Origin: a virus
Length of the DNA stretch: 26,298 nt
Virus record (IMG/VR): IMGVR_UViG_3300045988_009838
Coordinates: 1-26,298 of that record
Strand: one strand, 5' to 3'
Shown: positions 9,244-23,799 of the stretch, piece after piece
Layout: every line of letters starts with the position of its first letter
Numbering within the stretch: the first letter of the stretch is position 1
Translations under genes and position numbers: made by a program
The notes under the pieces: generated by a model
Database searches by the model: none
The model's input: the letters and a program-made list of their open reading frames with translations, nothing else
What the model was told of the DNA's origin: nothing

Positions 9244-9660
9244 TCAACGTTCCACAACTAATTTGCCATCTCTATACAATTCTGCAAATGCTAGGATAGC
9301 ATTATTTAGCAATCCTTGAAAGGCTGTCCTTTCGAATCCGATTGCTTGGGCGATTTGCCAGTTTGGTTTCGGTGGGTATGCTAGATATTTCTCTATCAGT
9401 ATTCTGCGATAGTCTGGACGATATAGCCCACTAACTGCTTGCTCTATGGCTTCTAGCTCGTTCATGGCATCGACACGCCTAACTGCGATATTTTCCACTG
9501 GTCTACTCACTCCGCTGCCACCTCTTGGCATAAAAGTGAACTCTTGTGTAATCTTCTGTTCAGCGCTATCGTGTGCTATCTCTCGCCATCTTGGATATTC
9601 TCGAAGTTTTCGCTTGCAACCTCTGATAGTTGCTTTCTCATCAATTTCCGGCAATAGCAT
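9244..9660 (-). CDS. arpU: ArpU-family late-gene transcriptional regulator
   Basis: The track ORF 9244..9750 is trimmed to the ATG at 9660 (RBS AGAGGA 7 nt upstream). MLLPEIDEKATIRGCKRKLREYPRW... and the position just before terS fit ArpU/RinA-type regulators. Confidence 0.7.
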   Translation of the reverse strand: MLLPEIDEKATIRGCKRKLREYPRWREIAHDSAEQKITQEFTFMPRGGSGVSRPVENIAVRRVDAMNELEAIEQAVSGLYRPDYRRILIEKYLAYPPKPNWQIAQAIGFERTAFQGLLNNAILAFAELYRDGKLVVER

Positions 9661-9683
9661 TGTTCTGTCCTCTTTGGTATAAT
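9655..9683 (+). promoter_or_regulatory. Plus-strand extended -10 promoter (TAGCAT-17-TGgTATAAT) overlapping the arpU start codon
   Basis: TGGTATAAT at 9675-9683; the weak -35 hexamer at 9655-9660 contains the CAT of the arpU ATG. Confidence 0.4.
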
Positions 9684-9776
9684 AGTAGTGTTGATTTCCA
9701 AAGAGTGCCGGCCATCGTGTCGGTCTTTTTTTGTTTGGCCCAAAAAACATTAAGAGGTTTTATAAGGGAAAGATTA

Positions 9777-9860: not shown

Positions 9861-10030
9861 GTAATGCGATATCGATAAGAAAGAGGGTGTTTCACATCCT
9901 TTTTTCTTAAATTTGCTGGGTTTGTTTGAGCAAGGTCTGTCAGTTTGCCCGGTGTTGAAAAAGTGTTCAAGCCACTAAAAATCTATATCCATTTTTTAGC
10001 TTCATTTTTTATTTTTAGTGTATTTGACAG

Positions 10031-10068
10031 ACAATGACTGGCAAAGGAGTCGAACCCTTGACAGCCAG
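10031..10068 (-). ncRNA. tRNA-like minihelix E1 (T-arm plus acceptor-like stem), not a complete tRNA
   Basis: Minus strand reads CTGGC-TGTC-AAGGG-TTCGACT-CCTTT-GCCAG-TCATTGT. GGTTCGACTCC matches the tRNA T-arm consensus, but no D-arm or anticodon arm could be folded. Confidence 0.4.
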
Positions 10069-10350: not shown

Positions 10351-10404
10351 GTATTGACTGGTAATAGCTAGCGAGGGAAGTCGAACCCTCATAGACCGTT
10401 CTAG
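10351..10404 (-). ncRNA. tRNA-like minihelix E2, a direct repeat of E1, starting at the stop codon of 10405..11115
   Basis: Minus strand reads TAGCTAG-AACGGTCTAT-GAGGG-TTCGACTT-CCCTC-G-CTAGCTA-TTACCAGTCAATAC. It shares GGGTTCGACT and CCAGTCA(A/T)T...TAC with E1. Confidence 0.4.
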
Positions 10405-11115
10405 CTACACGCCTAACATGTAGGCTTTATATAGGGCTTTTCTGACCGTAATTTTATCCCTGCCTGTCTTGCCTTTAGTTCGGTATTCAAGCATAATGCG
10501 GTCAGCATCGTCATCCAGCCTATCGGGCCAATCGTAGTTATTGAAGACATAATCAACGATTTTGCTGAATAAGTCTCGTGACAGCATCCCTTCCATTTGA
10601 ATCACTTTCAATGGCGTTAAGGCAGCTTTCTCCGCATAGCAACAATTGAGGGCGTTTTGGGTTTTGTTAGCTTGCTTCTTATCGCAACCTTTAATGTCTC
10701 TGATGTACTTGTTTAGGTCGTTAGGGTGTTCCTTGCGTAGTTCTTCCACTTCCTCACGGAATCGCTTAAACAAGTCCTCTGGCAGTCCTGCGTTGGTTTT
10801 CTCCAAAACTGGGCGCGTGGTTTTGCCCCTTGTGTAGTGTTGTGACAGATATGCTTGTAGGTCGTTGAATAGTCCGTCGGAAATGATGCCTTTTAGTCTG
10901 TCAACTGTTTGAGGTGAGATCCTCGCACGCTCCACCACTGCACTATTAAACGCTTGATATATGATGCGAGCTTGTAACTCATCGCACTGTTTCACATCTT
11001 GGAAAAATTGCTTATAAGAGCCTTTTTTGTGTGCTTTTCTCAGTGCCGCATGTTCACTGACCAGCCGTTGATATAATTCTGGTGTCAGTCCGGAATATTG
11101 GTAGGTTTTACTCAT
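10405..11115 (-). CDS. Hypothetical early protein built from two tandem ~100-aa repeats
   Basis: 236-aa ORF. Residues ~9-96 and ~110-197 align (GLxxxL(Y/F)xR...LRKxH...D(V/I)KxCD..QA...A(L/I)(S/T)P..V...G(I/M)(I/L)S..LF). Confidence 0.6.
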   Translation of the reverse strand: MSKTYQYSGLTPELYQRLVSEHAALRKAHKKGSYKQFFQDVKQCDELQARIIYQAFNSAVVERARISPQTVDRLKGIISDGLFNDLQAYLSQHYTRGKTTRPVLEKTNAGLPEDLFKRFREEVEELRKEHPNDLNKYIRDIKGCDKKQANKTQNALNCCYAEKAALTPLKVIQMEGMLSRDLFSKIVDYVFNNYDWPDRLDDDADRIMLEYRTKGKTGRDKITVRKALYKAYMLGV

Positions 11116-18449: not shown

Positions 18450-20192
18450 TTATTTACCGTTGTATTTCTTGAAACCAAGAGTTAGAGCAGTGATTCCTGC
18501 AGCGATGACTACCAATCCTAAAGTGCTAGCAATTCCTTCTTTCTCACCAGTGTTAGGGAGAACACCGCCGTAAACGGCTGTATTTGGTGTCTCTTTGCTT
18601 GCTGGTGCGAAGTTATAAGATACTGTGGCAGATTGTGCCACTTTTTCTTTAGGCTTGTTAGGTACTTCTTTCGGTGTCACTGGTTTTTCTGGTGTTGGTT
18701 CCACTGGAATATGCAACTCTGGCAAATCAAGGATAGGGGCATCATTCGGAACTACTCCCCCTTCGAATGGTGGCAACTCACGGACTTCTGGAATTCCGGG
18801 AATACCTCCTTGGAATTCAGGTTTGTAATGGATAGGCGCTTCATTTGGCACTGTCCCGCCATTCCATTCTGGTTTATCCAAAACTGGAGCGTCGTTTGGT
18901 ACAGTTCCAATCGGTTCAGTGTACTCAGGCAATTCTCGCACCTCTGGGATTCCGGGGATACCGCCTTTAAATTCCGGTTTTTCGTACTTAGGTGCATCGT
19001 GTGGCACCTCAAAAGTTGGCTCTGGTTTGTTCTCGCCAGAAGCATCCCCACGCCCGCCGACAAGTTGAATCTTCTGATATGAAACAGCACCATCATTTTC
19101 AGCTTTCAATTCAATCTTGTTAGTCGGGTTTGTACTGTCTTTAACAGCATTTACAAGCTTAGTCTTGTAGTACAAGTAAATCATGTGGTCTAGTCTATCC
19201 ATTTTGATTTCAAATCCATGCTCAGATTTTGAGATAGACTTAACTAAGTCCATAGCTGAACCTTTGTCAATCCAAGGGTCTAAACTTTCAATATTTTTCA
19301 CTTCAAAGTAGTTATCAACCAACTTTTGGTTTTCTGACATTTCGTCAATGATTGTTACATAGTTTAGTACACGTTTTGCATAGTTAACTCGTGCTGTCCA
19401 ATTGATCACTGTAGGGTCTTCTTTGTCTTGAAATCCCCATTTAGCGATAAGTTCATCTTTGCCAATTACTTGCTCCGAACCTACATTGACTGTTACCACA
19501 GTGCCGTTAAAGTTGACATTTACTGGCTTGCCAGATACAACTTTATCTGTCCAACTTGCATCTAGTTTTAAGTTCATGATCTTATTCAAAGGGTGTGATT
19601 TGAAATAGTCATTGAATACAGTTGTCACCTTGTTAGTGGTAGCATCCGCTGTAGCTTTACCAACTACAGCTTTATCAGGATTGTGGACGTCAAACTCATA
19701 GGAAGTTTGAAATTTTACTTCTTCAGGTAAGTCAAAAGTAACCTTATCCCCCTCATTTACCGGCACGTCGTCCGGAATTTTAATGTTTTTATACTCAACC
19801 TCGAACGGGCTATACTTTCCATTCGGGAAAGTAACCTCAACGTTTGGGTTTTCAACGTTGAATGTGTCTCCCGTTTTAGTCACTGTAGTAGGTGCCGCTG
19901 GTGTTTCTGCAATCGGTTGAGCTTCGACTGGTGCTGGTGGAGTAAATACTGGTGTTTCCACTGGTGCCACTGTTTCAGACGGTGTCACTGTAATATTCCC
20001 GGCATTGTCAGCGGTATAGACATTAGACACCGCTGGTTGTGTGTCTGCCACTGGTTGAGTGGTTTCGTCTGCTGACACTGCCCCAGCTCCAATCAATAGA
20101 GCTGTAGCTAGTGCCAATGTGCCACAAAGTCCGTAGGCTTTAGTTTTAACGTAGCTAGGTTTTGAAGTTGTTTGAGTGTTGAAAGATTTCAT
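18450..20192 (-). CDS. LPXTG-anchored surface adhesin (MSCRAMM/collagen-binding-like A region, Pro-rich repeats)
   Basis: The track ORF is trimmed to the ATG at 20192 (RBS AAGGAG). Signal peptide MKSFNTQTTSKPSYVKTKAYGLCGTLALATALLIGAGAVSA. TVFNDYF and INWTARVNY motifs resemble adhesin N2/N3 folds. LPNTG at 18546-18560 is followed by a TM segment and a KKYNGK tail. Confidence 0.85.
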   Translation of the reverse strand: MKSFNTQTTSKPSYVKTKAYGLCGTLALATALLIGAGAVSADETTQPVADTQPAVSNVYTADNAGNITVTPSETVAPVETPVFTPPAPVEAQPIAETPAAPTTVTKTGDTFNVENPNVEVTFPNGKYSPFEVEYKNIKIPDDVPVNEGDKVTFDLPEEVKFQTSYEFDVHNPDKAVVGKATADATTNKVTTVFNDYFKSHPLNKIMNLKLDASWTDKVVSGKPVNVNFNGTVVTVNVGSEQVIGKDELIAKWGFQDKEDPTVINWTARVNYAKRVLNYVTIIDEMSENQKLVDNYFEVKNIESLDPWIDKGSAMDLVKSISKSEHGFEIKMDRLDHMIYLYYKTKLVNAVKDSTNPTNKIELKAENDGAVSYQKIQLVGGRGDASGENKPEPTFEVPHDAPKYEKPEFKGGIPGIPEVRELPEYTEPIGTVPNDAPVLDKPEWNGGTVPNEAPIHYKPEFQGGIPGIPEVRELPPFEGGVVPNDAPILDLPELHIPVEPTPEKPVTPKEVPNKPKEKVAQSATVSYNFAPASKETPNTAVYGGVLPNTGEKEGIASTLGLVVIAAGITALTLGFKKYNGK

Positions 20193-20200
20193 GGTATAAT
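20172..20200 (+). promoter_or_regulatory. Near-consensus plus-strand promoter TTGAGT-17-TGgTATAAT inside/abutting the LPXTG start codon
   Basis: -35 at 20172-20177; TG at 20192-20193 (shared with the CATG of the minus-strand start); -10 at 20195-20200. Confidence 0.55.
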
Positions 20201-20223
20201 CTCCTTGTAAATGTTTTTTTCTT

Positions 20224-20250
20224 GCATGGGCCCTAACCCATGCTTTTTTT
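20224..20250 (+). terminator. Plus-strand intrinsic terminator about 20 nt downstream of that promoter
   Basis: GCATGGG-ccctaa-CCCATGC followed by TTTTTTT. In the minus orientation the hairpin is followed by an A-rich tract. Confidence 0.6.
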
Positions 20251-20273
20251 AGTGCTTCAATCCGCACCCATCG

Positions 20274-20307
20274 CCCACCGTTTCATGTTTTTTCAATGTT
20301 TTATTAG
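20274..20307. repeat. Right copy of the direct repeat bracketing the LPXTG cassette
   Basis: CCCACC-gtttcatgtttt-TTCAATGTTT-t-ATTAG. Confidence 0.5.
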
Positions 20308-20415
20308 ACTTATGAATGGGAAAATTAGGAAAAAAGTAATTTAGTAAAGATTTTTTTGGGGAAAAGGCATAAGTTACACTCCACGGTGAGCCGTGGCTAC
20401 GGATTGAAGATGTTG

Positions 20416-20538: not shown

Positions 20539-20682
20539 TTACCCCACTAATTGATCTAATGGCAATCCGTGGTCTGCATTGAAATCTCGTACCTTTTCGT
20601 CAATCATGCGATATGGTCTTACCTCGAAGACTTCTACTTCATTTTGCTTTTTGCTCCAAATCCAATTGATAAGTTTTTTCAT
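20539..20682 (-). CDS. Possible 47-aa early ORF (MKKLINWIWSKKQNEVEVFEVRPYRMIDEKVRDFNADHGLPLDQLVG)
   Basis: Own translation; RBS AGAGGT 8 nt upstream of the ATG at 20682. Confidence 0.45.
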   Translation of the reverse strand: MKKLINWIWSKKQNEVEVFEVRPYRMIDEKVRDFNADHGLPLDQLVG

Positions 20683-20750
20683 GTTTTTTTACCTCTCTTA
20701 TTCTTCTAACTATGATTACTGTATAGTTATCTATTAGTTATTATTACCAG

Positions 20751-20796
20751 TTAGTGCCGTTAGGCTCTAGATTGTTGTCGGTTAGTGCCGTAGGCC
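20751..20796 (+). repeat. Two direct copies of TTAGTGCCGT(T)AGGC
   Basis: Copies at 20751-20765 and 20782-20796; related copies at 20837, 21528 (inverted) and 21649. Confidence 0.6.
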
Positions 20797-20799
20797 ATA

Positions 20800-20846
20800 T
20801 TGTTATATATTAGTACTTGTTATATATTAGTACTTGTTAGTGTCCG
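20800..20846 (+). repeat. Tandem 17-bp repeat TTGTTATATATTAGTAC x2 plus a partial third copy
   Basis: 20800-20816 and 20817-20833 are identical; TTGTTAGTGTCCG follows. Confidence 0.8.
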
Positions 20847-20960
20847 ATTATTCATCGTATGAATTTTCATCGGTTGAATTATTCATCGTATGAATTTTCA
20901 ACTTATGAATTATCATCGTATGAATTAATGGAAATTCCATTTATCGAACTATGAATTTTT
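20847..20960 (+). repeat. Iteron-like array: three copies of TCATCGTATGAATT within a 15-16-bp phased series of (T)ATGAATT
   Basis: 14-mers at 20852, 20883 and 20913; GAATT at 20861, 20876, 20892, 20907, 20922 and 20953. Confidence 0.8.
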
Positions 20961-21275
20961 AAGGCTACCTGTGGATAACTCTGTGGATAACTTTTTATCA
21001 AGGTATTCTATAAACTTGTCTGTCATGGGTATGTCTGATGCACATACAACTATTTCAAAACCTTTTTTATAGCCCTTGCTTTTTCGGAAAACCACGACAT
21101 ACCGTTTGTGTTTTAATTCTTCAAACGCTGAACGGTGTGAGCTTTTCCCATTGGTTGACCTCTTTTCGAGTTCTGACAGATAAACCCGCCAATCGCTTTT
21201 ATTTATCAAGATTTCAGCAAGTAAACCCTTAGCTTGTAAACTCAAGCTGGCGTCTTGCAAAAACTCGTTGTTCAT
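20949..21275 (-). CDS. Small winged-helix DNA-binding protein (RepA_N / DnaD-N-like pattern)
   Basis: 108 aa. LSLQAKGLLAEIL...WRVYLSELEKRS..GKSSHRSAFEELKHKRYV follows the wHTH pattern of Firmicute initiator N-terminal domains. The repeat array starts at its stop codon. Confidence 0.55.
   Translation of the reverse strand: MNNEFLQDASLSLQAKGLLAEILINKSDWRVYLSELEKRSTNGKSSHRSAFEELKHKRYVVVFRKSKGYKKGFEIVVCASDIPMTDKFIEYLDKKLSTELSTGSLKNS
20970..20990 (-). promoter_or_regulatory. Two perfect tandem DnaA boxes (TTATCCACA) 12 bp apart
   Basis: The plus strand has TGTGGATAA at 20970-20978 and 20982-20990, inside the last codons of 20949..21275. Confidence 0.7.
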
Positions 21276-21322: not shown

Positions 21323-21463
21323 TTATGCTCCTTTCTGGTAGATGCTTGCCACGATATCGTAGTAGCTATGCCCTGCTGGTATCGTGTACTTAGTTAGATC
21401 ATCAACTCTGGAACCATCTGCCATAATGTTGATTATGACTGGTTCCCATTTCTTTCGTTTCAT
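21323..21463 (-). CDS. Possible 46-aa early ORF (MKRKKWEPVIINIMADGSRVDDLTKYTIPAGHSYYDIVASIYQKGA)
   Basis: Own translation; below the track cut-off; AAGG lies 11 nt upstream of the ATG. Confidence 0.45.
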   Translation of the reverse strand: MKRKKWEPVIINIMADGSRVDDLTKYTIPAGHSYYDIVASIYQKGA

Positions 21464-21471
21464 GATATAAT
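21443..21471 (+). promoter_or_regulatory. Plus-strand extended -10 promoter TTCCCA-17-TGaTATAAT abutting the start codon of 21323..21463
   Basis: TG at 21463-21464 is shared with the CATG of the minus-strand start; -10 at 21466-21471. Confidence 0.45.
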
Positions 21472-21492
21472 TACCTTGATTTCAATATCTTA

Positions 21493-21523
21493 GGGTCTGA
21501 CTCTGGCAGGGGTCAGCCTTTTT
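21493..21523 (+). terminator. Plus-strand intrinsic terminator about 20 nt downstream of that promoter
   Basis: GG(t)CTGAC-tctggcaggg-GTCAGCC followed by TTTTTTG; the opposite orientation has no U-tract. Confidence 0.55.
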
Positions 21524-21527
21524 TGTT

Positions 21528-21672: not shown

Positions 21673-22425
21673 TCAATCGTCTTGTTCGATGATTGGCAGG
21701 ATGCCGTTAACTTTTAGCAATTCATACAAGAACAAGCGCCCTTTTTGTGTCCAAGTCGTTGTCATATTGACTTGAGCTTGACCGTTCTTATCCTTGTAAT
21801 CAAATGTCGAACTATCGACATAGCCCTTACCCATGTGTTTCTTATACAAAATCCATTGACTGTTGACCTTGTGTTGAACACCTAGATCATGCAAGGTTGC
21901 ATTGAATTTCTTGGCACTCATGCCGTAATCTGCCGCAATCTGGGTAACACGCACCGCCCCTTTACTTTCTAGAATGATGTCGAAGTAGCGTGCTTGCTCT
22001 TGCGCCAAGGCCAACTCAGCCTCTAGTTTCACCACTTTAGCCCGTTCGTCTTTAAGAGCTTGAAAGGCTGCAATGGCAAGGTCAGGATCATTAAGTAGTT
22101 GTTCTGTAGCATACATGCCATGTTTGCGTATGGTTGGCAAAACCTCTGATGTGACCCAACGTTTAAACTCCTTGGCTTGTGGTAGTTTGCTTGACAAAAT
22201 TAGGGAGTATAAACCAGACTCATTGATGATAATCATCTCTCTGTCTTGACCTGAGGTACCGAAACGGTACTTCAGCTTATCTTCTTCATCTACGTGTCTA
22301 TTGACATCTCGACTACCATTTTGGTACCCCAAAATCCCAGCCACATCCTTACCTACAAAGTAAGGCTCATTGTTAATAGTTACTGTTCGGACATCTTGTC
22401 CGTGGAAGTTGAAAATTTCATTCAT
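21673..22425 (-). CDS. Antirepressor (Bro-N domain plus KilAC/ANT-like C-terminal domain)
   Basis: The track ORF is trimmed to the ATG at 22425 (RBS AAAGAAAGGAAAC). FNFHGQDVRTVTINNEPYFVGKDVAGILGY is a typical Bro-N motif. Confidence 0.8.
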   Translation of the reverse strand: MNEIFNFHGQDVRTVTINNEPYFVGKDVAGILGYQNGSRDVNRHVDEEDKLKYRFGTSGQDREMIIINESGLYSLILSSKLPQAKEFKRWVTSEVLPTIRKHGMYATEQLLNDPDLAIAAFQALKDERAKVVKLEAELALAQEQARYFDIILESKGAVRVTQIAADYGMSAKKFNATLHDLGVQHKVNSQWILYKKHMGKGYVDSSTFDYKDKNGQAQVNMTTTWTQKGRLFLYELLKVNGILPIIEQDD

Positions 22426-22449
22426 AGTGTTTCCTTTCTTTGATATAAT
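22421..22449 (+). promoter_or_regulatory. Plus-strand promoter TTCATA-17-TGaTATAAT for the membrane-protein gene; its -35 contains the antirepressor start codon
   Basis: -35 at 22421-22426 (CAT 22423-22425 is the antirepressor ATG); TG at 22441-22442; -10 at 22444-22449. Confidence 0.55.
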
Positions 22450-22473
22450 AGTTAATAAAAACGAGGTTTTGAC

Positions 22474-22896
22474 ATGAAGAATAAATCTGAAATATCTGCT
22501 TTTCTGATGTTCGTTGGGTTGCTGTACATTGAATTCCACTGTATAACACCAGATAGCCATTCAGCCTTGACTAGGCTGGCCGACATCAATTGGACGTATC
22601 TATGCCTAGTGATTGGTATCGCTTTATTCATTTCGATGTTAGCGTTAAGCTATATCCATGACATCCTACTCTTTTTTAAACTTGAAAAAGACGGTGATAT
22701 AACTTATAGCTTTGTCGTCACTTTGCCTATCTTTGGAATCCTCGTTTTGAGAAACTGCTTGATTGTCCTGTCTGATACTCAATTTGGAAATTTAATGTCC
22801 TTTGTTAGCGTCCCTATCTTCGGTGCTTTCTGGTCGCTTTCCAAACGAACGCTCAAAGCGAACAGGCAGCAAGATGAGAACTCCGACAAGCATTGA
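22474..22896 (+). CDS. Four-TM membrane protein, counter-oriented moron (possible superinfection exclusion/immunity function)
   Basis: 140-aa ORF; GAGG 8 nt before the ATG; four hydrophobic segments; own promoter and terminator. The minus strand has no ORF between 22426 and 22791. Confidence 0.6.
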   Translation: MKNKSEISAFLMFVGLLYIEFHCITPDSHSALTRLADINWTYLCLVIGIALFISMLALSYIHDILLFFKLEKDGDITYSFVVTLPIFGILVLRNCLIVLSDTQFGNLMSFVSVPIFGAFWSLSKRTLKANRQQDENSDKH

Positions 22897-22986
22897 GAAT
22901 GTAAAAAACATATAGGTCGTAAAGTCCCACTCTGGGATTGGACGGCCTTTTTGCATGAACTCGATAAAATCGTGGATGTGATTCAT
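22792..22986 (-). CDS. Small single-TM protein downstream of cro
   Basis: 64 aa; strong RBS GAAAGGGG 6 nt upstream; 20 nt after the cro stop. Its 3' 105 nt overlap the convergent plus-strand gene. Confidence 0.5.
   Translation of the reverse strand: MNHIHDFIEFMQKGRPIPEWDFTTYMFFTFSMLVGVLILLPVRFERSFGKRPESTEDRDANKGH
22914..22953 (+). terminator. Plus-strand terminator after the membrane-protein gene
   Basis: AGGTCGT-aaag-TCCCA-ctc-TGGGA-ttgg-ACGGCCT followed by TTTTG. One U-G pair makes it specific to the plus-sense RNA. Confidence 0.45.
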
Positions 22987-23316: not shown

Positions 23317-23324
23317 CAGTTTTT

Positions 23325-23340
23325 GTTCAATTTTTTGAAC
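23325..23340. promoter_or_regulatory. Operator copy O2 GTTCAATTTTTTGAAC between the two divergent -35 boxes
   Basis: Perfect GTTCAA-N4-TTGAAC palindrome; an extra TTGAAC half-site forms the repressor promoter -35 at 23357-23362. Confidence 0.7.
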
Positions 23341-23356
23341 TTTTTTCCGATTTTTC

Positions 23357-23385
23357 TTGAACTTTTTTATTTTCTACTATATAAT
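23357..23385 (+). promoter_or_regulatory. Repressor (lysogeny) promoter TTGAAC-17-TATAAT
   Basis: -35 at 23357-23362 and -10 at 23380-23385, about 28 nt before the repressor ATG. Confidence 0.7.
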
Positions 23386-23412
23386 AAAGCCATAAAGGAA
23401 AAGGAAAAAAAT

Positions 23413-23799
23413 ATGAAAAATACTACTGCTTCACGTTTGCGACAAGTTATGAGCGAACGAAATTTAAAACAAGTTGACGTAATTTCCCTTTCGAAAGTAC
23501 ATCAAAAAGAACTTGGCGTTAAACTTGGAAAGAGTGCTTTGTCTCAATATATCAATGGGAAATCAACACCAGACCAAGAAAAGTTGGTGCTGCTTGCTAG
23601 AACGTTGGGGGTATCTGAAGCATGGCTCATGGGGTACGATGTCCCTATGACGAAAGAACAACCGCAACCAACCAACGCCCACGACATTGACGAAATCATA
23701 GCTAATGCAATGATGTTCGACGGGAAACCGTTGACGGATGATGATAAACGTGCCATCCGTGGCATCATTGCGGGATATATGAGCAGCAAGGAAAAGTGA
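23413..23799 (+). CDS. cI-like XRE-family repressor (ImmR-type, partner of ImmA)
   Basis: The track ORF is trimmed to the ATG at 23413 (RBS AAAGGAAAAGGA). HTH LKQVDVISLSKVHQKELGVKLGKSALSQYINGK. Followed by the ImmA-like gene. Confidence 0.85.
   Translation: MKNTTASRLRQVMSERNLKQVDVISLSKVHQKELGVKLGKSALSQYINGKSTPDQEKLVLLARTLGVSEAWLMGYDVPMTKEQPQPTNAHDIDEIIANAMMFDGKPLTDDDKRAIRGIIAGYMSSKEK

Follow-up and report, generated by a model that had tools for sequence, protein, structure and literature searches.

The window analysed here, a 26,298-nt stretch of viral DNA (IMG/VR record IMGVR_UViG_3300045988_009838, positions 1 to 26,298), belongs to a temperate Streptococcus phage of the S. salivarius / S. 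thermophilus group, with SA-TP2, Javan535, Javan536 and YMC-2011 as relatives. Its minus strand encodes an LPXTG surface protein of 580 amino acids (aa) at 20192-18450, and a compact unit consisting of a promoter and an intrinsic terminator lies across the start of this gene on the plus strand, at 20172-20250. An original prediction, made from the letters of the DNA, had described this unit as the source of a short antisense RNA. The parts it listed, namely the promoter, a TG overlapping the ATG, the complement of the Shine-Dalgarno (SD) sequence, the hairpin and the T7 tract, are all present.

The -35-like hexamer TTGAGT (20172-20177, plus strand) falls within codons 6-7 of the LPXTG gene on the opposite strand and is separated by a 17-nt spacer from the extended -10 element TGGTATAAT (20192-20200, plus strand). 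The combination TTGAGT-17-TGGTATAAT has the composition of an extended -10 promoter for sigma-A, and in relatives with other N-terminal coding sequences a TTGnnn likewise stands 17-18 nt upstream of the -10 element, as read by eye. The translation initiation region of the LPXTG gene (20190-20206, minus strand) is made of the same base pairs: the SD AAGGAG (20206-20201), the spacer ATTATACC and the ATG (20192-20190). The extended -10 element is thus the SD-to-ATG spacer plus the A of the minus-strand ATG, the T of the promoter TG being the complement of that A, and the SD reads as CTCCTT (20201-20206) on the plus strand. In other words, ATG, 8-nt spacer and SD correspond to TG-n-TATAAT plus a 6-nt discriminator. 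At the level of sequence and comparison, this is a host sigma-A extended -10 promoter built from the translation initiation region of the downstream lytic-strand gene.

The terminator (20224-20250, plus strand) begins 17 nt past the predicted start, G20207, and consists of GCATGGG-CCCTAA-CCCATGC (20224-20243) and T7 (20244-20250), with a 7-bp G+C-rich stem containing five G-C pairs and a 6-nt loop. On the minus-strand side the hairpin is followed by the A-rich AAGAAAAAAA, so only plus-sense transcription would meet a U-tract, in agreement with the strand specificity that had been proposed. The predicted product is a 44-nt antisense RNA (20207-20250, plus strand) with a 5' G20207, a 17-nt tail, the hairpin and U7. 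Its start site was placed by geometry (TATAAT, 6 nt, then G), the same spacing as that of mapped S. pyogenes starts. The predicted RNA folds with -12.2 kcal/mol (z -3.4) and the opposite strand with -13.9 kcal/mol, an energy that does not discriminate between the strands for this hairpin. The short RNA complementary to the leader just upstream of the SD, as originally proposed, is therefore what the conserved unit predicts, at about 44 nt from G20207.

The target gene is real, as had been claimed. Its product has a signal peptide, Big_8 and Collagen_bind domains, an LPNTG motif and then a hydrophobic tail, and by these features it is a collagen-binding-type surface protein. A by-eye reading of 20193-20415 for a sense-strand sigma-A promoter that would serve the gene gave just a weak TAGCCA-17-TAACTT. 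Rfam, searched in gathering and E-value modes, returned no match at the gathering score and only chance-level E-values near the unit, and a search for transfer RNAs (tRNAs) gave nothing relevant to the unit. Judged from its sequence, the promoter and terminator at 20172-20250 are one self-contained mini-gene on the strand opposite the lytic genes. It has its own promoter and terminator opposite its target and predicts a discrete small RNA, both in the window and in the comparisons below, and we conclude that it is a genuine mini-gene for a predicted cis-antisense RNA of about 44 nt.

Sister units in the window

The motif TGNTATAAT occurs five times in the window, at 9675, 11069, 20192, 21463 and 22441, always on the plus strand; 1.17 copies are expected on both strands, and none of 100 shuffles reached five. 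The original prediction had counted four, the additional copy being that at 11069, which lies inside a gene and has no terminator. Promoter-terminator units for short RNAs had been proposed at all four, and these stand at 9675, 20192 and 21463, whereas the motif at 22441 is the promoter of a gene for a 140-aa protein. The claim about the position of the motif on gene starts also holds in part: it is the SD-to-ATG spacer at 20192 (AAGGAGATTATACCATG) and 21463 (AAGGTAATTATATCATG), but lies just upstream of the SD at 9675 (arpU, ATG at 9660) and 22441 (antirepressor, ATG at 22425). Three of the five motifs have a terminator 10-45 nt downstream, which was equalled by 3 of 200,000 random placements of five sites. 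The distance from the -10 element to the stem is 24, 24 and 26 nt at 9675, 20192 and 21463, respectively.

The second unit (21443-21524, plus strand) comprises TTCCCA-17-TGATATAAT (21463-21471, on the ATG of an open reading frame (ORF) of 46 aa), a predicted start at G21478, a hairpin at 21497-21516 and T6 at 21519-21524. Its predicted RNA of about 47 nt folds with -15.6 kcal/mol on the plus strand versus -8.0 kcal/mol on the other. The third unit (9675-9732, plus strand) has TGGTATAAT upstream of the arpU SD, a predicted start at G9690, a hairpin with two G:U pairs at 9707-9724 and T7 at 9726-9732; the predicted RNA of about 43 nt folds with -11.2 versus -5.3 kcal/mol. A type I toxin-antitoxin system was considered for these units and rejected: the 46-aa product is hydrophilic and has no membrane segment, and the other targets are the 580-aa surface protein and ArpU.

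The copy at 22441 belongs to a protein-coding, counter-oriented cassette (22421-22953, plus strand). Its promoter, TTCATA-17-TGATATAAT (22441-22449), is followed by the SD and ATG of the 140-aa membrane-like ORF (22474-22896), which has no Pfam or PHROG match, and by a strong plus-specific terminator (22914-22953). At this antirepressor (Ant) junction, the same promoter is followed by at least five different cargo ORFs among relatives. With its promoter, cargo ORF, terminator and position on the lysogeny strand, the 22441 unit matches morons, the counter-oriented accessory cassettes of prophages; the 20172-20250 unit differs from them in that its promoter and terminator do not enclose an ORF at any of about 70 loci. 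Read-through of the 22441 cassette would run antisense to the cro-like gene and in sense into cI.

The fifth motif (TGATATAAT, 11069-11077, plus strand) arises from the codons Leu-Tyr-Gln of a phrog_1814 gene and is kept in three related loci. It may be incidental or a real internal antisense promoter.

Conservation of promoter and terminators

Relatives were gathered by anchors that exclude the promoter, and across the three units the extended -10 element has been retained in more than 190 related phage loci beside neighbouring bases that vary. A conserved 17-mer 64 nt downstream of the LPXTG unit led to about 70 oral-metagenome phage loci, a DNA scan with the hairpin of the 46-aa unit to 52, and the ArpU protein to 75. 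Most of these relatives are closely related to each other.

At the LPXTG unit, 69 of 70 loci have retained either CATG-N-TATAAT or, with a spacer shorter by 2 nt, CATG-N-TATACT. From SD to hairpin the sequence has been rewritten repeatedly with insertions and deletions, and the coding side varies: at least three unrelated N-terminal coding sequences lie behind the unit among the roughly 70 loci, and three loci have other cargo N-termini. At the 46-aa unit, 49 of 52 loci keep TG-N-TA..., with any of the four bases at N and with TACAAT and TATAGT as the sole variants of the hexamer. The arpU unit is the one in which the motif stands outside the ribosome binding site (RBS), and still TGNTATAAT is kept in 73 of 75 loci (TGGTATAAT in 68 and TGATATAAT in 5), the other two having TTGTATAAT, in which the G of the TG is lost; the neighbouring SD and spacer occur in 11 variants.

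Across the three units, variation is confined to N and hexamer positions 3-5, with T1, A2 and T6 invariant, and by this comparison the pattern is what a sigma-A -10 element tolerates. A freely varying ATTATAnC spacer in homologues had been named at the outset as the mark of a chance by-product; the changes found are restricted to these positions, and it is the flanks that vary. Strand bias points in the same direction. In 74 related loci, the strand opposite the lytic genes has 148 copies of the perfect 9-mer versus 16 on the lytic strand, and 71 of the 148 plus-strand motifs (48%) have a terminator versus a background of 2%.

Eight loci, YMC-2011 among them, have a second TGGTATAAT between SD and hairpin (CTCCTTGGTATAATTTTCTTGCA), which gives tandem extended -10 boxes.

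The hairpins also carry a record of the strand on which they are selected. The LPXTG hairpin has the compensatory variants GCATGGG/CCCATGC, GCACAGG/CCTGTGC and GCACGGG/CCCGTGT, and its G1:U20 variants, like the U4:G17 pair in S. thermophilus phage 2972, pair on the plus strand only. The arpU hairpin contains two G:U pairs and the 46-aa hairpin two U:G pairs, which become A:C mismatches on the sense strand, and the plus-strand folds are better by 6-8 kcal/mol for these two units. T-runs follow the unit hairpins on the plus strand only. By these signatures the terminators act as plus-strand RNA. We also considered the hairpins as a sense-strand terminator or 5' stabiliser, a role not favoured because of the plus-only T-runs and the A:C mismatches in sense.

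Distribution among named phages

The LPXTG unit is homologous to an element in the virulent S. thermophilus phage 2972 (CATGGTATACT, hairpin, T7, AGTACTTCAATCCGCACCC), where the replication module begins with a Gam-like gene and the element lies upstream of that gene. An element in the temperate phage TP-J34 aligns with the unit as well, and the depositors of that phage annotated its hairpin as a stem_loop. The LPXTG gene is absent behind the homologous element in both phages. The element is therefore a junction element before the replication module, behind which the LPXTG gene was inserted, and on this comparison it is older and wider than the adhesin. The original view of an adhesin-specific element is thus replaced by that of a junction element also found in S. 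thermophilus phages without the adhesin.

The same layout recurs with unrelated sequence in phages of S. thermophilus (2972, 20617 and TP-J34) and of S. pyogenes (Javan454, Javan489 and T12). The layout of the arpU unit is found in 2972 and, with a different hairpin, in 20617. It is also found in Javan454 and Javan489, whose ArpU has about 50% identity and whose unrelated hairpin contains two wobble pairs, and in T12, where it precedes a different late-regulator family (phrog_36). The T12 and Javan454 units have a terminator in common with each other and not with the window. Javan240 of S. gordonii lacks the arpU unit, so the unit is not universal.

A further promoter-terminator unit stands before the replisome organiser in Javan536-type relatives (TGTTATAAT-CAAGTAAATTGTTTTGATGAACG, variable hairpins, T7) and is absent from the window. 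Seven loci carry it, about 2.1-2.3 kb left of the anchor. It combines a conserved 5' part, AAGTAAATTGTTTTGATGAACG, with interchangeable hairpins and a tail, CCCACCnnTTCATGTT, that resembles the tail of the LPXTG unit. A 5' AAGTAAATT is common to a Javan489 unit of S. pyogenes and the S. salivarius replisome-organiser unit.

Published transcript maps

Rosinski-Chupin et al. (2019; PMC6431027) mapped primary 5' and 3' ends in an S. pyogenes S119 lysogen by differential RNA sequencing (their Tables S2 and S6), and we placed entries of these tables on phage sequences. SP119_SR105 is a 29-nt RNA with the promoter ...CATGATAAAATtccttt and a start 7 nt after the -10 element; when placed, this -10 element falls in the SD-ATG spacer of an early gene and the terminator follows directly. 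SP119_SR104 (34 nt) has the promoter CAT..ctctc..TGTTATAAT, and SP119_SR036 (32 nt, with a read-through of 1203 nt) has TGATATAAT upstream of the SD of the late-regulator gene. SP119_SR035 gives a 46-nt product. The primary start pyotss0681 belongs to a counter-oriented cargo gene whose TGATATAAT overlaps the RBS region of the opposite gene, and by its layout it is the S. pyogenes equivalent of the 22441 cassette.

In SF370, Le Rhun et al. (2016; PMC4829319) validated by Northern blot a 42-nt prophage RNA, Spy_sRNA1212757, which they called unusually short. We tried to place it on Javan489, but its coordinates fit neither candidate unit and a placement on the sequence was not achieved.

The tiny antisense RNAs SR105, SR104 and SR036 resemble the predicted RNA of the window: the extended -10 element coincides with or adjoins the RBS of a lytic gene, the start is 7 nt on, and a terminator, at which the mapped short products end, comes about 5-20 nt farther. 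The geometry is identical, with TAAAAT-tccttt-A in SR105 and TATAAT-ctcctt-G in the window. They are expressed in lysogens and are located at early-region junctions and before the late-regulator gene. They differ in host species and phage lineage and have no similarity to the LPXTG unit by eye, a comparison made without dedicated alignment. These S. pyogenes prophage RNAs are the nearest relatives of the unit; they are catalogued in PMC6431027 and PMC4829319 and not analysed there as a class. The original suggestion that the arrangement had gone unrecorded must be withdrawn to that extent, as tiny antisense RNAs of the same layout were already listed.

Our literature search found no paper that describes or tests the arrangement. 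What appears to be undescribed in searchable papers is the recurrent architecture, with a promoter derived from the translation initiation region and a fixed spacing from -10 element to terminator, together with the placement at module junctions, the conservation from S. pyogenes to dairy phages and the arpU leader hairpin. A 2026 paper (PMC13575424) reports an antisense RNA between ORF37 and ORF38 of phage 2972 that can be targeted by spacers of type III CRISPR systems. We considered whether it is one of the two 2972 units and rejected this, since it lies in a different place. Its position outside both units implies more antisense transcription in these phages than is annotated.

A checkpoint model and its alternatives

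We tentatively favour a model in which the unit is a threshold or checkpoint device that represses entry into the next module, a role that we rank first and place just short of probable. Host RNA polymerase would make the RNA constitutively whenever sense transcription is low, as in the lysogen. The product, an RNA of about 44 nt that would be a full complement of the sense leader and end one base upstream of the SD, would pair with the rare sense transcripts that enter the next module and either block their use or mark them for RNase III. Blocking or marking would set a threshold that induction must exceed. After induction, strong sense transcription would dislodge polymerase and thereby silence the antisense promoter. 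The terminator would confine antisense transcription and keep it away from the adjacent stem-loop and the early genes. The sister units belong to the 46-aa ORF and to arpU, the gene of the late activator. A repressive checkpoint role is plausible and unproven.

Several observations weigh against this model. The predicted 5' end at G20207 is one base upstream of the SD, and the RNA covers only the leader, neither the SD nor the AUG. The single-stranded 5' tail is 17 nt in the window and about 3 nt in 2972, and this lack of conservation argues against simple pairing initiated by the tail. The second TGGTATAAT of the YMC-2011-type phages would give an RNA of little beyond the terminator hairpin, and 3 of the 52 loci with the 46-aa unit keep the hairpin without the promoter and have a different downstream gene. 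Since 2972, a strictly virulent phage, has kept the unit as well, a role in the lysogen alone would be an incomplete account. The original proposal of silencing in the lysogen therefore fails as an exclusive role, and what remains of it is the threshold role as the favoured candidate. The mapped starts for this layout come from S. pyogenes units, that is, from another phage and host, and the maps show partial read-through of 249-1394 nt (PMC6431027). Because most relatives are close to each other, the locus counts are not independent events.

The leader of arpU (9660-9715, minus strand) bears on a different reading, in which the units are transcribed but are no brake, and the RNA or its transcription acts positively or in processing. 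It might open a closed leader, separate early polycistronic modules through RNase III, or time late expression as early transcription declines. In this leader an upstream anti-SD, CUCUUUGG, pairs with the SD region CCAAAGAG, and the loop of the resulting hairpin carries the complement of the antisense -10 element. Phages 20617, Javan454 and T12 have the same arrangement in unrelated sequences. The covariation agrees with the sense strand: CUUUCUG is accompanied by CAGAGAG in each of the five distinct leaders that have it, and the U:G pair exists in sense only. As the anti-SD arm is covered by the antisense RNA, the RNA could open the SD and activate arpU translation, which counts against repression as the general rule, and the presence of units in virulent 2972 fits a positive role as well. 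However, the LPXTG and 46-aa leaders contain no anti-SD element, and the arpU hairpin is degraded in 2972. We regard the positive or processing role as unlikely overall. The sign of regulation may differ between units, and the original idea that all of them oppose lytic expression is weakened by an arpU leader whose structure suggests possible activation.

We are more doubtful still that the units are relics of module junctions, that is, recombination joints and empty or minimal counter-oriented cassettes, in which promoter plus terminator would be the frame that receives cargo genes such as the 140-aa ORF, all of them transcribed without a regulatory role of their own. The same type of promoter does drive variable cargo ORFs with a plus-strand terminator at the Ant junction, the junction element is immediately followed by the LPXTG gene or by other cargo genes, and some relatives have a second unit with a similar tail (CCCACCnnTTCATGTT) after the LPXTG region (LPXTG gene plus a small gene) and before the replisome organiser. 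Nevertheless, an ORF between promoter and terminator was found in 0 of about 70 loci. The layout is kept across species with unrelated sequences, and the stem covariation and G:U pairs point to selection on the hairpin and the -10 element.

If the terminator were primary and the promoter secondary, the unit would be a one-way insulator that shields the stem-loop, the region resembling a replication origin, the early genes and the genetic switch from any plus-sense transcription that starts within the lytic genes. This would account for the three promoterless loci of the 46-aa unit, and it fits a terminator that adjoins a conserved long stem-loop on a strand rich in extended -10 motifs (148 versus 16). 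We nonetheless find it improbable. The -10 element and its TG are conserved beside variable flanks in all three units, including arpU, where the RBS imposes no constraint; the spacing from -10 element to stem is constant at 24-26 nt; and the mapped S. pyogenes starts lie directly before such terminators.

Priming or activation of replication is a role once proposed for lambda oop RNA. Here, a short transcript or its read-through would act in this way on the adjacent AT-rich stem-loop or on the iterons: the promoter fires toward the stem-loop at 20255-20409 and the iterons at 20740-20923, before the replication module, and the neighbourhood is the same in 2972 and TP-J34. With a strong, conserved terminator in the path, and identical units at arpU, the 46-aa ORF and S. 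pyogenes junctions lacking an origin-like sequence, we consider it quite improbable. Least credible of all, and contradicted by the evidence, is a chance by-product, in which the backward reading of an AT-rich RBS spacer happens to be TATAAT beside an unrelated hairpin: two motifs do coincide with SD-ATG spacers and the T-rich plus strand makes terminator-like matches commoner there, but the association statistics, the conservation pattern, the recurrence across species and the mapped S. pyogenes starts all speak against it.

The checkpoint model can be widened, with distinctly less confidence than we place in the model itself, to the proposal that RBS-embedded micro-genes form a conserved class at the module junctions of both temperate and virulent streptococcal phages, each being an extended -10 promoter formed from a translation initiation region and followed at once by a terminator. 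These would encode antisense RNAs of 30-47 nt that serve as checkpoints or timers, and at arpU the RNA would act on the SD-sequestering leader hairpin, which has the antisense promoter in its loop, and would thereby link the end of early transcription to late onset. We see this as a doubtful possibility. The same RNAs might interfere with superinfecting relatives that share the conserved leaders.

Comparison with known phage systems

P22 sar is an antisense RNA of 68-69 nt that represses translation of ant. Like the predicted RNA of the window, it is a small RNA whose promoter points back across the start of a lytic-control gene; it ends after a few dozen nucleotides and provides a secondary layer of control besides the main repressor. 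Whereas sar covers the ant RBS, the window RNA would stop one base short of the SD. The window unit is moreover Gram-positive, shorter, without homology to sar and present several times per genome, and its promoter is built from the SD-ATG spacer.

Lambda OOP, of 77 nt, is antisense to the 3' end of cII, depends on RNase III and is encoded next to ori, the replication origin. It too is a short, constitutive, terminator-ended antisense RNA of the early region near replication functions, but it targets a coding 3' end whereas the window RNA would target a 5' leader, and the two have no homology. The likeness to sar and OOP that had been proposed therefore holds for the self-contained promoter and terminator and the small antisense RNA, and not for coverage of the RBS or AUG or for homology.

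At pR/pL of coliphage 186, convergent promoters interfere as described by the 'sitting duck' model. There, as in the window, lytic and counter-oriented promoters face each other, with mutual effects on polymerase. In the window, however, the sense promoter would be kilobases away and the antisense transcript would end after about 44 nt, restricting collisions to one RBS-sized spot.

Genome context

The minus strand carries the lytic genes in the order Cro-like gene (23243-23007), antirepressor (22425-21673), 46-aa ORF (21463-21323), gene for a 108-aa DNA-binding or replication-initiator-like protein (20949-21275), iterons, two small ORFs, LPXTG gene and replisome organiser (18395-17550), with the gene of the late activator ArpU (9660-9244) at the far end of the series. 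On the plus strand lie the lysogeny genes, a cI-like repressor (23323-23799), an M78 peptidase, a bPH/SHOCT protein and an integrase.

Just downstream of the 108-aa protein gene, the iterons at 20740-20923 comprise three families of direct repeats (31-, 21- and 17-nt units), and to judge from their arrangement these repeats look like an iteron-type origin. Between the iterons and the stem-loop are two small minus-strand ORFs of 47 aa (20682-20539, similar to TP-J34 orf9) and 39 aa (20535-20416). A 41-bp stretch at 20543-20583 has 95% identity to Sfi21, TP-J34 and TP-778L.

Adjoining the unit terminator is a long-range stem-loop (20255-20409, minus strand; 155 bp) with the arms CTTCAATCCGCACCCATCGCCCACCG and CGGTGAGCCGTGGCTACGGATTGAAG, an AT-rich loop of about 100 nt and a fold z of -4.3. 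It is conserved in relatives (for example in L001 and at 2328-2477 of L085), its arms show the compensatory change of CAATCCG/CGGATTG to CAACGTG/CACGTTG in SA-TP2, and the TP-J34 record annotates it as a 150-nt stem_loop. An origin or PER-type element is one possible identity, a structured leader another.

Two tRNA-like T-arm/acceptor remnants (GGAGTCGAACCC and GGGAAGTCGAACCCTC; minus-strand reading GGGTTCGAC) lie at about 10030-10060 and 10375-10405, in the noncoding stretch between arpU and the preceding genes. ARAGORN called no tRNA at either remnant, and a similar one occurs in phage 20617.

Implications

The unit is of compact design, with one 9-mer that is both RBS spacer and promoter, and can be probed by single-base changes. 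Regulation by these RNAs would explain why perfect host-type promoters have amassed on the "wrong" strand (148 versus 16 in related loci) and why RNAs of 29-46 nt recur in transcript maps of streptococcal prophages. Should the RNAs not regulate, the units would still mark joints for the insertion of cargo such as the collagen-binding adhesin. If they do regulate, their targets would be entry into the replication module and the late activator, and the repressor/Cro/ArpU circuit would gain an RNA layer in a large phage group to which S. thermophilus dairy phages and toxin-carrying S. pyogenes prophages belong.

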